DNA of 64,000 bases from assembly GCA_003141675.1 (NCBI GenBank), contig PLND01000063.1:30036-94035 (forward strand), in the 5' to 3' direction. The notes beneath the pieces are model-generated. The model saw only the letters and a list, made by a program, of their open reading frames with translations. It was not told where the DNA came from and ran no database searches. Within the stretch, counting starts at the first letter, position 1, and each line of letters opens with the position of its first letter. This DNA is from Anaerolineae bacterium. GTDB lineage: Bacteria > Chloroflexota > Anaerolineae > Anaerolineales > RBG-16-64-43. This document shows, one piece after another, positions 33,593 through 36,163 of the stretch. The position numbers were made by a program, and so were the translations under genes.

Positions 33593-36163
33593 ATGCCTAT
33601 CGATTCGATCGTCCGCACGCTCCGCTCCGATCCGCGCTTTGCGCCCAACATCACTGCCTGGGAGCGAATCCCCCCGCGCGAACCCCTCCTCGTCCCGCCG
33701 CCGGATGGTTTGCGCTCTGATTTGCGCGAGGGACTGCGCGCCCGCGGGATCGACCGGTTGTATGCGCACCAGGCCGAGGCGGTGGAAGCCGCGCTGCGCG
33801 GCGAAAACGTGGTCCTCGCCACCGGCACCGCATCCGGAAAAACGCTCGCTTATAATCTTCCGATTCTTCAAGCGTGGCTCGAGGATCCCTCCGCAACGGC
33901 TATTTATCTATTTCCAACGAAGGCGCTCGCCCAGGATCAGGCGGCGGAACTCGCGCGCTGGGAGAATGTTCTGGATGCAGGCGAGCTTGGTGTCCGGCTC
34001 TACGACGGCGATACGCCGCAATCCCGCCGCGCCGATACCCGCCGCAGCGCGCGGCTGCTCGTCACCAACCCCGACATGCTCCACCTCGGAATTCTTCCCC
34101 ACCATACCCGCTGGGCGGAATTCCTCTCGCATTTGCAATATGTTGTGCTCGACGAGCTGCACGTCTACCGCGGCGTGTTCGGATCGCACATGGCCAACGT
34201 CCTCCGGCGGCTGCGCCGCGTGTGCGCTTTCTACGCCGCCTCCGGAGGACAAACCGGACCGCAGTTCCTGGCCTCCTCGGCCACCATCGCCAATCCGCGC
34301 GAACTGGCCGAGCGGTTGACCGGCGCGCCGGTGACCGCGATCGAGCGCGACTCCTCGCCGCGCGCCGCCAAACATCTGATCCTGTACAACCCGCCGCTGG
34401 CGGATCCATCGCTCGGAATTCGGAAATCCTACATTCGCGAGTCGCAGGAACTGGCGATGCGGCTCATCCGCGCCGGCGTGCAGACGGCGGTTTTCGCCCG
34501 CACCCGGCGGACGGTGGAACTGCTGCTGGGTTTTCTGCGCGAGCAGTGCGCGGCGGAGGGCCTCGACCCGCAATCGGTGCGCGGCTATCGCGCCGGATAC
34601 CTGCCGGAGGAGCGCCGCGCGATCGAGGCCGGGTTGCGCGGCGGGATTGTGCGCTGCGTGGTAGCCACCAGCGCCTTGGAACTCGGCGTCGATATCGGTA
34701 CGTTGGGAGCGGCGGTGATCGCCGGGTATCCCGGGACTGTGGCTTCCTTCTGGCAACAGGCCGGCCGCGCCGGACGCCGCGAGGAAGAATCGCTCGCGAT
34801 CCTGGTGGCCTCACCCGACCCGCTCGATCAATTTCTGATGGCGCATCCGGAGTTTCTGCTCGGCCGGTCGCCCGAGCACGCGCGGATCAACCCCGACAAC
34901 CTGGCCATCCTGGCCGGACATCTGCGCTGCTCGGCGTTCGAAATGCCGTTTTCCCGCGGCGAACTTTTCGGCTCGGAGAACGTGGACGAACTGCTCGCGG
35001 CGCTGGCGGAGGAAGGCGAATTGCACCGTTCGGAAAGCGGGGAAGTTTCCTGGGTGGGCGAAGACTATCCGGCCGCCGCGATCAGCCTGCGCACGGCGGG
35101 AACCGACCGCGTGGTGGTGCAGGTGGTCGAAGACGGCCGGCCGCGGATGATCGGCGAGGTGGACCGCAGCGCGGCGCCGTCGTGGGTGCATGCGGATGCG
35201 ATCTACCTTCATGAGGGGCGCACCTATTTCGTCGACTCGCTGGATTGGGAGGCGGGGATCGCCCTCGCCCGGCCGATCGAGACGGATTATTACACGCAGG
35301 CCTCACTATCGGTGGACCTCGACGTGCTGGCCGCGCGCGATTCCAGCGAGGGCGGCGTGTTGCGGCGCGCCTGGGGCGACTTGCGTGTCCGCTCGCAGGC
35401 GGTTGCCTTCCGCCAGCTGCGCCGGTCGACGGGCGAAACGATCGGCAACGGCGAGATCGATCTGCCGGCGAACGAATTTACGACGGTCGGCTGCTGGTTA
35501 TGGATCGCGCCGGAGAGCGTACGGGATTTCGAAGGAGAAGCGCGCGAGATCCTCGCGCTGACCCTGCCGAACGATTACGGGGCCTCGTGGCCGGAAGCGC
35601 GCAGCGCCGCCCGGGAGCGCGACGGCTTCCGCTGCACGCATTGCGGCGCTCCCGAGCCGGAGGGACGCGAACACGACGTGCACCACCGCATCCCTTTCCG
35701 CTCGTTTGGATATCTCCCGGGTCGGAACGAGGAGCATCTGCGGGCCAACGCGCTCGAGAATCTGACCACGCTGTGCGCCGCGTGCCACCAGCGGGTCGAA
35801 GCGCAGCAGGGGACGCACACCGCGCTGGGAGGACTGGCGAACGCGCTGCACAACCTGGCGCCGCTGCTTCTGATGTGCGATGCGCGCGACCTGGGAGTAT
35901 CGGTGGACTTGCGCGGGAAAGAGACCGGCGGACCCACGGTGATGTTTTACGACAACCTGCCGGAAGGATTGGGCCTCTCAGAGGAACTCTATGCATCCCT
36001 GCCGGATCTCTTGGCATCCGCAGCGGCACTGATCCGCGATTGCCCTTGCCAATTCGGCTGTCCGGCGTGCGTCGGTCCGGTCGCCCCGGGCGCCGGCCCG
36101 GTCAAGCGCGCTGCGAGAAGGTTGGCGGAGATACTGGGAGAAAGGAAAAAGAAATCAGATTAA
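33593..36163 (+). CDS. COG1205/MrfA-like DEXH-box helicase with DUF1998 zinc domain carrying an embedded HNH nuclease motif
   Basis: Motif I [9 protein letters not shown], motif II VLDELH and motif VI [9 protein letters not shown]. C-terminal Cys cluster [11 protein letters not shown]. HNH signature CTHCG...HDVHHRIPF...[14 protein letters not shown] at nt 35627-35800. Confidence 0.9.
   Translation: [856 protein letters not shown]

Follow-up and report, generated by a model that had tools for sequence, protein, structure and literature searches.

One gene in this window (the whole 64-kb stretch of DNA that was analyzed) encodes a helicase with an HNH nuclease motif inside it. A previous sequence-only reading had described the product as a helicase of the MrfA/COG1205 type into which an HNH module is inserted. 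The open reading frame, the motifs and the positions that it quoted were all correct (ORF listing and motif search; Table 1), and the description itself is borne out by orthology to MrfA over the full length and by the presence of all catalytic residues. The 856-aa protein is a full-length MrfA/YprA orthologue with intact helicase motifs and with winged-helix (WH), OB, connector (CON) and four-cysteine MZB domains. It belongs to the 3'-to-5' SF2 DNA helicases with WH-OB-CON-MZB accessory domains, and Pfam revealed no C-terminal extension beyond MZB. These proteins appear in databases under names such as "DEAD/DEAH box helicase" or "RNA helicase DbpA/YfmL", which are bland or wrong and are corrected here.

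Several comparisons support this assignment. A phmmer search of the PDB matched the helicase to Bacillus subtilis MrfA (6znp) over its full length (E 3.3e-209; 40% identity). Residues 10-639 align continuously with MrfA 11-633 and residues 744-839 with MrfA 647-742 (phmmer alignment), the HNH insert being the sole break between the two proteins. The TIGR03817 profile matched with 660 bits, relative to an equivalog cut-off of 874, and this match breaks at residue 650. The AF2 model (pLDDT 86.4) contains long beta-strands across residues 506-638, in the OB/CON region, and was matched by Foldseek to 6znp (E 2e-72; TM 0.64/0.72). The residues of motifs I, II, III and VI and the cysteines of MZB are invariant in 58 aligned homologues. 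The domain limits given in Table 1 are approximate, as they were transferred from MrfA through the alignment and the limits published for its structure (PMC7797055).

Table 1. Coordinates of the helicase gene, its domains and motifs, and the adjoining DUF559 gene.
Feature	Position (nt)	Residues (aa)	Strand	Basis
MrfA/YprA-family helicase with embedded HNH	33593..36163	856 aa, stop codon included	+	ORF listing
SF2 DExH core, RecA1 and RecA2	33710..34879	~40-429	+	Pfam DEAD, Helicase_C
Pfam DEAD		58-236	+	Pfam
Motif I, GTASGKT	33824-33844	78-84	+	motif search
Motif II, DELH	34151-34162	187-190	+	motif search
Motif III, SAT	34277-34285		+	motif search
Pfam Helicase_C		291-396	+	Pfam
Motif VI, QQAGRAGRR	34754-34780	388-396	+	motif search
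Winged-helix, OB and connector (CON), the "canopy" of MrfA	34880..35500	~430-636	+	alignment to MrfA 424-630
Pfam WHD_HRQ1		432-501	+	Pfam
104-aa insert, absent from B. subtilis MrfA	35510..35821	640-743	+	alignment gap vs MrfA
FRCTHCG...CAACHQRVE	35627-35800	679-736	+	motif search
HNH nuclease core	35633..35800	681-736	+	Pfam HNH PF01844, 29.0 bits vs gathering cut-off 21.4
MZB/DUF1998 zinc-binding domain	35822..36130	744-~846	+	aligns to MrfA 647-742
Pfam MZB PF09369		748-827	+	E 4.6e-19
18-residue segment quoted in the sequence-only reading		751-768	+	motif search
11-residue DUF1998-type Cys cluster quoted in the sequence-only reading		816-826	+	motif search
Four-Cys zinc site, C817, C819, C823, C826	36041-36070		+	invariant in 58 homologues
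DUF559 gene	36155-36640		-	adjoins helicase 3' end, 9-nt overlap

We further analyzed the boundaries of the HNH module, which had been described as about 60 residues lying within the DUF1998 zinc domain. Both details need revision. The insert is larger and comprises a variable linker (residues 640-657), a leader helix (residues 660-678) and the beta-beta-alpha-metal core of the HNH; the leader helix, with the consensus NDYG.SW..R.AAR.RD, is part of the HNH module. Where CON meets MZB, it takes the place of 13 MrfA residues (634-646), and it precedes the Pfam MZB match. According to the domain limits of the crystal structure, the HNH module lies only ~3 residues inside MZB, and it is outside the four-Cys zinc site. 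The full-length and insert-only models both present the HNH fold, with strands at residues 695-698 and 724-727 and then a helix at residues 729-740; the insert-only model has a pLDDT of 84 overall and of ~90 or above in these elements. The motif consists of the zinc-binding pairs C681/C684 and C728/C731, of H697-H698 at the position of the general base, and of N723 and H732.

The conservation of this module was then compared to that of its host. All eight residues (C681, C684, H697, H698, N723, C728, C731 and H732) are invariant in the 58 aligned homologues, the motif is intact in all 73 of the complete sequences that species-representative genomes provided, and it is retained in homologues down to 42% identity. 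Only H694, the first histidine of HDVHH, varies in some lineages. Mean pairwise identity is 0.67 for the insert and 0.67-0.72 for the RecA core, and dN/dS is 0.12-0.39 for the insert against 0.12-0.31 for the helicase core. The insert is under strong purifying selection, like the helicase core. The possibility that the motif represents a structural zinc knuckle lacking the catalytic His and Asn fails on this same conservation. We also rejected a degenerate knuckle in the homologues for which no Pfam HNH is listed: these keep every motif residue, and some of them carry a Gly-rich loop within the module. With the H/N/H catalytic residues and the CxxC pairs all present, the HNH module is complete and apparently active.

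The relatives of the insert point in the same direction. Searched alone, it matched the phage family phrog_8446, annotated "HNH endonuclease" (E 3e-17). The best PDB matches of the insert-only model are HNH nucleases (probability 1.0, with modest E values of 0.01-0.1), and viral models match it at E 3e-6. The closest structures are the HNH of phage GVE2 (5h0m), EcoKMcrA, Cas5-HNH, Cap5 and viral HNHs (rmsd 1.7-2.0 A). By fold and sequence together, the insert is nearest to proven nucleases: GVE2 HNH, EcoKMcrA, Cas5-HNH, Cap5 and the Gme nicking HNH. Free-standing metagenomic proteins that combine zinc-ribbon repeats with an HNH present 50-57% identity to the insert over ~75 aa; they belong to the phage families phrog_1271 and phrog_8446, and one was found in an IMG/VR viral contig. 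HNHs of the type found in Halogranum tailed virus 1 present 41-42% identity, and a leader helix of the form YGPNW..QR..AR.RD is common to the insert and to the phage and free-standing HNHs. Because the nearest relatives are free-standing or phage HNH proteins, a mobile origin of the insert is likely.

An alternative is that the HNH has become a non-catalytic zinc- or DNA-binding module that serves as a structural brace, as a sensor of lesions or branches, or as a surface for protein interactions, comparable to the small zinc-binding inserts that defense-type YprA helicases carry in their canopy. Zinc-binding inserts are indeed common in the OB-CON-DUF1998 canopy of other YprA clades, and inactivated nuclease domains are frequent in the family (PMC12458937); the variability of H694 in some lineages also speaks for such a role. 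However, H698, N723 and H732, which are needed for catalysis and not for folding, are invariant in all the sequences examined, and these are precisely the kind of residues that inactivated HNH domains usually lose. The Pfam HNH score also remains above threshold, and the closest structures are active nucleases. This makes a non-catalytic role quite unlikely.

We then searched for the distribution of the HNH-bearing helicase. Its relatives form more than 200 protein clusters, and nearly all named sources are Chloroflexota of the class Anaerolineae. A scan of species-representative genomes, using an alignment of six sequences as the query, yielded at least 440 confirmed matches; the best 80 all fall in orders of Anaerolineae, except one MAG labelled otherwise. 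Starting from a divergent member (P0216), the organism-named matches among the 120 listed were all Chloroflexota, nearly all with a Pfam HNH recorded. The insertion site is the same throughout, and no insert-less allele was found among the more than 200 nearest clusters or in 76 loci. The HNH-bearing MrfA is the standard, vertically inherited form in the class Anaerolineae. It is not the architecture of the whole family, since neither the alignment to B. subtilis MrfA nor the match to the TIGR03817 profile runs through the insert. The sequence-only reading had asked whether HNH-containing DUF1998 proteins are a common and already catalogued architecture of housekeeping MrfA: this holds within Anaerolineae, as Pfam domain tables already record the combination of HNH and helicase for hundreds of public proteins, but not for the family overall.

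The gene lies in a housekeeping chromosomal context. Its GC3 (0.79) matches that of the adjoining genes and its codon usage is native; the neighbors in the window include genes for PolA, PBP, MetH, SDR, RidA and YbaK-like proteins. No neighbor is conserved across 76 loci, window included, and no defense gene was found near the helicase. Scans for promoters and terminators around the gene returned nothing above background that is relevant to the finding. The DUF559 cassette had been noted as abutting the 3' end of the helicase gene, and this adjacency is real. As a functional partner, however, it was rejected: it lies on the opposite strand, presents a GC3 of 0.42, belongs to a 1.9-kb block missing from the closest relative, and does not occur in the 80 related loci. 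The DUF559 gene is a strain-specific, low-GC addition unrelated to the helicase.

These data bear on the suggestion that the protein acts against foreign DNA, as a single-protein anti-phage or anti-plasmid helicase-nuclease similar to Hna or to the nuclease-fused YprA of ARMADA and Druantia, which would load on foreign DNA and degrade it. Nuclease-fused YprA-family helicases are the core of several defense systems (PMC12458937), the helicase core is hit by the PADLOC models BrxH, SngC, DruE and DrmA, the HNH belongs to a viral type, and a nuclease gene (DUF559) adjoins the helicase in the window. But the PADLOC matches are limited to the generic SF2 core, and the alignment to repair-type MrfA covers the protein from one end to the other, with no extra domain such as the BrxA-like insert of the defense branch evident. 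Its near-universal and collinear presence across Anaerolineae differs from a patchy distribution, and neither the strain-specific DUF559 gene on the other strand nor a neighborhood devoid of conserved partners and defense genes, together with native codon usage, fits such a role. A function in defense is improbable on this evidence.

Finally, it is very improbable that the insert is a selfish homing-type element, tolerated in frame and serving its own spread: its nearest relatives are free-standing or phage proteins, one of them in a viral contig, but all homologues found carry it at one position, without an empty-site allele among the more than 200 nearest clusters or the 76 loci, and it is as conserved as the domains around it, also by dN/dS. 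Unlike the free-standing proteins, it no longer has zinc-ribbon repeats for DNA recognition, and it shows no intein or intron features. This pattern fits an ancient capture and domestication of the HNH rather than current mobility, and a single origin of the HNH-bearing MrfA clade is likely.

We next considered MrfB, the separate DnaQ-like 3'-5' exonuclease with TPR that works with MrfA and with which the single-chain architecture had been contrasted. In B. subtilis, the MrfAB pair protects against mitomycin C damage independently of UvrABC. This contrast holds for the window, where no MrfB-like sequence was found across the 64 kb (tblastn, E 1e-3), but only in part beyond it: of 80 related loci, 8 (~10%) have an mrfB-like exonuclease gene directly downstream of the gene for the HNH-bearing helicase. 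In addition, one protein (P0242) fuses all three activities, helicase, HNH and MrfB-like exonuclease, in a single chain. The HNH as a simple replacement of MrfB was rejected on these two observations. They suggest that the HNH is complementary to MrfB rather than redundant with it, which we count as supporting evidence.

That unwinding and cutting are joined in one chain, as proposed in the sequence-only reading, is a reasonable interpretation of the domain content. Overall, we consider it fairly probable that this protein is the Anaerolineae form of the MrfA/YprA repair helicase, which would carry its own nicking module; an ancestor of the class would have captured a compact viral or homing-type HNH at the CON-MZB hinge. 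From the intact motif, we predict that the HNH nicks DNA in a metal-dependent manner. The wide funnel through which DNA enters MrfA is lined by CON and MZB, and the displaced strand is proposed to leave along MZB (PMC7797055). Because of this arrangement, and judging by the insertion point only, the HNH would sit where duplex DNA meets the motor. MZB makes almost no contact with DNA in MrfA (PMC7797055), so the proximity of the HNH to DNA is not guaranteed. MZB also rotates by ~63 degrees upon DNA binding (PMC7797055), and movement of the CON/MZB hinge during the ATPase cycle may gate cutting. The HNH could cut a single strand when damaged or branched DNA is engaged by the helicase or stalls it. 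No nuclease is named for the incision step in the published MrfAB model, and MrfB performs poorly on nicked DNA and works well on linear DNA (10.1101/426304). The cut made by the HNH may supply the incision or entry point missing from this model, after which an exonuclease could clear away the unwound strand, either MrfB or, where MrfB is lacking, another enzyme.

A stronger version of this proposal is that the protein is a self-contained "scan-and-cut" excision enzyme, in which the helicase would translocate up to a bulky adduct or branch and stall there, and movement of the CON/MZB hinge would bring the HNH to the DNA in the entry funnel for nicking of the damaged or displaced strand. This version is tentative, and we regard it as possible but rather unlikely. 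If true, one polypeptide would do the job of UvrB plus UvrC, and it would identify the type of incision activity that the MrfAB pathway model lacks for other bacteria.

In agreement with the sequence-only reading, an HNH insert is not part of any family description that we found: none is mentioned in Roske 2021 (PMC7797055), the Burby preprint (10.1101/426304) or PMC12458937. More generally, we found no description of the MrfA-HNH architecture in the searchable literature, including the 2025 YprA survey of Bell/Koonin (PMC12458937). The domains are recorded automatically in databases and the helicase family is known; the HNH-bearing variant is new. MrfA/YprA is a widespread and poorly understood repair family, with yeast Hrq1 and the DISARM, Druantia and ARMADA helicases among its relatives, and its published excision model consists of a helicase and an exonuclease, without an enzyme for the first cut. 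A class-wide nuclease located in a moving helicase hinge constitutes a natural experiment on the site and timing at which cutting is coupled to unwinding, and it extends the known set of YprA-fused nucleases by an internally placed HNH. If the HNH were inactive, the finding would shrink to a lineage-specific domain insertion.

Among known systems, ARMADA (C-terminal Vsr), Druantia DruE (C-terminal PLD) and TALON (RNase H-like) likewise join a YprA helicase and a nuclease in one polypeptide, and the canopy of the defense YprA proteins likewise tolerates zinc-binding inserts (PMC12458937). In contrast, their nucleases sit at the C terminus and have other folds (Vsr/PD-(D/E)xK, PLD, EEP, RNase H), HNH not being among them (PMC12458937). 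The defense branch also presents a BrxA-like insert and conserved operons, whereas the Anaerolineae protein falls in the repair branch and lacks a conserved operon; indeed, no partner of DISARM, Dpd, Druantia, ARMADA, BRIGADE or TALON (DrmB/C/MTase, DruH, etc.) is conserved in 76 loci. The phage and free-standing HNHs (phrog_8446, phrog_1271, GVE2 5H0M, Halogranum tailed virus 1) possess the same core and leader helix but are small independent proteins, many with N-terminal zinc-ribbon repeats, whereas here the catalytic module alone is found inside a helicase. Human ZRANB3 is an SNF2 translocase (annealing helicase) whose C-terminal HNH nicks fork DNA in an ATP-dependent manner; 5MKW is the structure of this HNH domain. 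In ZRANB3, too, a single chain couples a DNA motor to an HNH nickase, in response to stress during replication or repair, and the ZRANB3 HNH is among the sequence and structure matches of the insert, although a weak one (E 0.3; Foldseek E 0.69). The motor differs (SNF2 versus the DExH of MrfA), as does the position of the HNH (terminal versus internal), and the likeness is an analogy of design, not a homology of the whole proteins. Mycobacterium smegmatis SftH and yeast Hrq1 belong to the same DUF1998 helicase family. B. subtilis MrfA (YprA; 6ZNP/6ZNQ/6ZNS) is 40% identical to the Anaerolineae protein over the full length and shares with it the domain order (NTR-RecA1-RecA2-WH-OB-CON-MZB), the helicase motifs and the four-Cys zinc site. 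It has no HNH, whereas the Anaerolineae protein has no adjacent mrfB in the window and in ~90% of related loci; the mrfA-mrfB gene pair of B. subtilis is nevertheless kept in some related loci.

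The HNH-bearing helicase of the window is, by all structural criteria, a member of the MrfA/YprA family. B. subtilis MrfA/YprA (6ZNP) matched it at E 3.3e-209 (phmmer against PDB sequences) in two collinear pieces, MrfA residues 11-633 aligning with aa 10-639 of the query and residues 647-742 with aa 744-839. An AlphaFold2 model built from 58 homologues (pLDDT 86.4; pTM 0.85) also presented 6ZNP as its top structural match (E 2e-72). The nearest NCBIfam model, TIGR03817 (SftH-type DEAH helicase), matched below its equivalog cut-off and was interrupted at aa 650. When the ORF and motif positions were re-derived, every helicase, HNH and DUF1998 motif quoted in the sequence-only reading was recovered where it had been placed, and all catalytic signatures of an MrfA-type helicase and of the embedded HNH were present.

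Positions of the helicase gene, its motifs and domains, and other genes of the window
Feature	Position (nt)	Strand	Helicase residues (aa)	Remarks
Helicase gene ORF	33593-36163	+		856 aa (ORF listing)
Motif GTASGKT			78-84	
Motif DELH			187-190	
Motif QQAGRAGRR			388-396	
CxxC...HH...N...CxxCH stretch	35627-35800		679-736	
Quoted 18-residue segment			751-768	
Quoted 11-residue segment			816-826	
DEAD			58-236	Pfam
Helicase_C			291-396	Pfam
WHD_HRQ1			432-501	Pfam
HNH PF01844			681-736	Pfam; 29.0 bits, gathering threshold 21.4
MZB/DUF1998			748-827	Pfam
DUF559 gene	36155-36640	-		Vsr-like endonuclease fold; 9-nt overlap with helicase stop
Esterase gene	37057-37992	-		Native GC3
Long ORF without Pfam match	22275-24068	+		
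Long ORF without Pfam match	42088-43776	-		
Long ORF without Pfam match	56231-57976	-		
Long ORF without Pfam match	59947-61581	-		

A 104-aa insert (aa 640-743) stands in place of MrfA residues 634-646. The published domain limits of MrfA are NTR 1-39, RecA1 40-250, RecA2 251-423, WH 424-490, OB 491-556, CON 557-630 and MZB 631-749 (PMC7797055, Roske et al.). In this numbering the insert falls at the CON/MZB junction; it precedes the Pfam MZB match and is distant from the four-Cys site, so that its earlier placement in the DUF1998 zinc domain was only loosely right. The insert is a complete minimal HNH nuclease module. Its elements are a leader helix (NDYG.SW..R.AAR.RD), a first CxxC, a strand whose last residues are H697-H698, N723 at the centre, another CxxC, and H732. 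Modeled alone, it reached a pLDDT of 84 overall and 93-98 over the HNH core. It matched the phage GVE2 HNH endonuclease 5H0M (Foldseek probability 1.0; sequence profile E 1e-5), as well as EcoKMcrA, Cas5-HNH, CBASS Cap5, the Gme nicking HNH and the ZRANB3 HNH, and viral HNH models aligned to it with 41-42% identity and an rmsd of 1.7-2.0 A.

Across 58 aligned homologues (56-96% identity), residues C681, C684, H694, V696, H697, H698, N719, N723, C728, C731 and H732 are invariant. The motif CxxC...HH..P...N...CxxCH is kept in all 73 complete C-termini of helicases from species-representative genomes, H694 being the sole variable position, and it is also found in homologues without a listed Pfam HNH, several of which have a loop rich in Gly separating the first CxxC from HDVHH. 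The module retains the catalytic residues that a structural zinc knuckle, as considered beforehand, would lack, and their invariance makes a non-catalytic zinc or DNA-binding role unlikely. Mean pairwise identity is 0.67 in the HNH core, 0.67-0.72 in the RecA domains and 0.68 in MZB. Measured against eight relatives, dN/dS (Nei-Gojobori) ranges over 0.12-0.39 in the insert and 0.12-0.31 in the RecA core, the more distant pairs being near synonymous saturation. The insert is as conserved as the remaining enzyme, and helicase and HNH are under the same selective constraint. Seven homologues (P0064, P0075, P0094, P0103, P0105, P0117 and P0119) present a Gly/Pro-rich low-complexity loop of 15-30 aa between the first CxxC and HDVHH, and in a Caldilineaceae form (P0124) MZB contains an added low-complexity stretch of ~40 aa; these positions evidently tolerate loops.

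The insert is present in all 120 best-matching protein clusters (56-96% identity), the named ones being Anaerolineales or Chloroflexota proteins labelled merely 'DEAD/DEAH box helicase'. A second search, started from a divergent member (P0216), also gave a list of 120 clusters, and Pfam HNH is recorded for nearly all of them; the ones bearing an organism name were Chloroflexota, with identity down to 42%, and some were mis-named DbpA or YfmL. Scanning one genome per GTDB species yielded at least 440 confirmed matches, the best 80 of which belonged to Anaerolineales, Caldilineales, Litorilinea, Thermoflexales, Promineifilaceae and Ardenticatenales, plus one MAG labelled Zixiibacteriota. Cluster look-ups for ten divergent helicase representatives returned Caldilineaceae or Chloroflexota names only, apart from a 633-nt contig with the label Kiritimatiellae. 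These two exceptions (L077 and P0273, respectively) were the only HNH-bearing MrfA found under labels other than Chloroflexota; in both cases the contig is short and the sequence very similar to those of Promineifilaceae or Caldilineaceae, and mis-binning is more likely than transfer. For the class Anaerolineae, the HNH-bearing form is the standard MrfA; it is not the architecture of the MrfA/YprA family at large. The suspicion that an HNH within DUF1998 is common and catalogued in housekeeping MrfA holds for that class and fails for the family as a whole. Among the HNH-bearing relatives covered by these searches, a single origin of the insert is likely.

The genomic surroundings are those of an ordinary chromosome: PolA, a class A PBP, MetH, an MTHFR fusion, thiolase, a DEAD-box RNA helicase, RidA, DUF456, SDR and a YbaK-type editing domain are encoded in the window, and the helicase GC3 (0.79) is similar to that of adjacent genes. 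Among 76 helicase loci, window included, no neighbor family recurred beyond local synteny among close relatives, except an MrfB-like gene. The defence-island setting envisaged for the homologues was not encountered, and this context, together with the conservation pattern, renders a single-protein defence nuclease improbable. The MrfB-like gene (RNase_H_2/DnaQ-type exonuclease with TPR) lies immediately downstream of the helicase in 8 of 80 loci; no MrfB-like sequence was found in the 64-kb window. In P0242 (775 aa, N-terminally truncated), an HNH-bearing MrfA C-terminus is fused, in one ORF, to an MrfB-like DnaQ/RNase_H_2 exonuclease and a TPR domain, which places helicase, endonuclease and exonuclease in a single chain.

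The DUF559 gene does abut the 3' end of the helicase gene, on the opposite strand. We rejected it as a helicase partner: its GC3 is 0.42, against about 0.75 in neighboring genes; it belongs to a 1.9-kb block (36157-38043) missing from the closest related locus, L001, which has about 200 nt there between flanks of 92-95% nucleotide identity; and none of 80 related loci has it. This small nuclease gene seems to be a recent acquisition and may be mobile. The L001 helicase gene itself (6284-8650; P0023; 96% identity over only 43% of the query) misses two short WH/OB-region segments corresponding to window ~34699-34780 and ~35041-35148, which points either to decay of this copy or to misassembly of the MAG. 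Four long ORFs of the window (544-597 aa) had no Pfam match at the thresholds used, and two of them present a GC3 below the local norm (0.52 and 0.60).

With the 98-aa insert region as query, a search of 1.84 billion representative proteins yielded 3,316 matches at E <= 1e-3 (434 at E <= 1e-10). Besides HNH-bearing helicases of 830-950 aa and their fragments, these comprised many proteins of 220-450 aa with repeated zinc ribbons followed by a C-terminal HNH that is 50-57% identical to the insert, leader helix included. Such proteins belong to the phage HNH families phrog_1271 and phrog_8446, the insert itself matches phrog_8446 (E 3e-17), and one full-length relative sits on a 75-kb IMG/VR viral contig. 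Members (P0157, P0165, P0169, P0182, P0195, P0209 and locus L081 6001-7041) have 4-6 repeats of C..CG...HFC...C..W and are nameless in their source databases. This family is the likely source lineage of the insert, which likely arose by capture of an HNH catalytic module of viral or homing type. A homing element is plausible as the insert's origin; that it still acts as a selfish one is very doubtful as a present function.

MrfA is a 3'-5' DNA helicase whose DNA entry funnel is lined by RecA2, OB, CON and MZB; for the displaced strand, an exit between MZB and RecA2 has been proposed, and on DNA binding MZB turns about 63 degrees, pulling CON and OB along (PMC7797055). The MrfAB model couples unwinding to exonucleolytic degradation without an incision enzyme, and degradation by MrfB is efficient on linear DNA and poor on nicked DNA (10.1101/426304). 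At the CON/MZB hinge the HNH would be located at the mouth of the helicase. We consider it probable that it is a nickase providing the incision point for this repair helicase, with canopy movement gating its access to DNA. Removal of the damaged strand, once unwound, would start from this nick and be carried out by MrfB where MrfB is present, which would explain how HNH and MrfB can coexist.

YprA-based defence systems possess operon partners or C-terminal nucleases; the query has neither and is therefore not a member of any of them. A 2025 survey of about 52,000 YprA-like proteins reported as associated nucleases the MrfB exonuclease, PLD, Vsr/PD-(D/E)xK, EEP and RNase H-like proteins (PMC12458937). 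Since automatic domain tables already record PF01844 for HNH-bearing helicases, the HNH-MrfA architecture is catalogued yet uninterpreted. At the level of sequence it remains a domain-insertion finding, one that would offer a clean, class-wide and testable helicase-nickase design in a repair family that has received little study.
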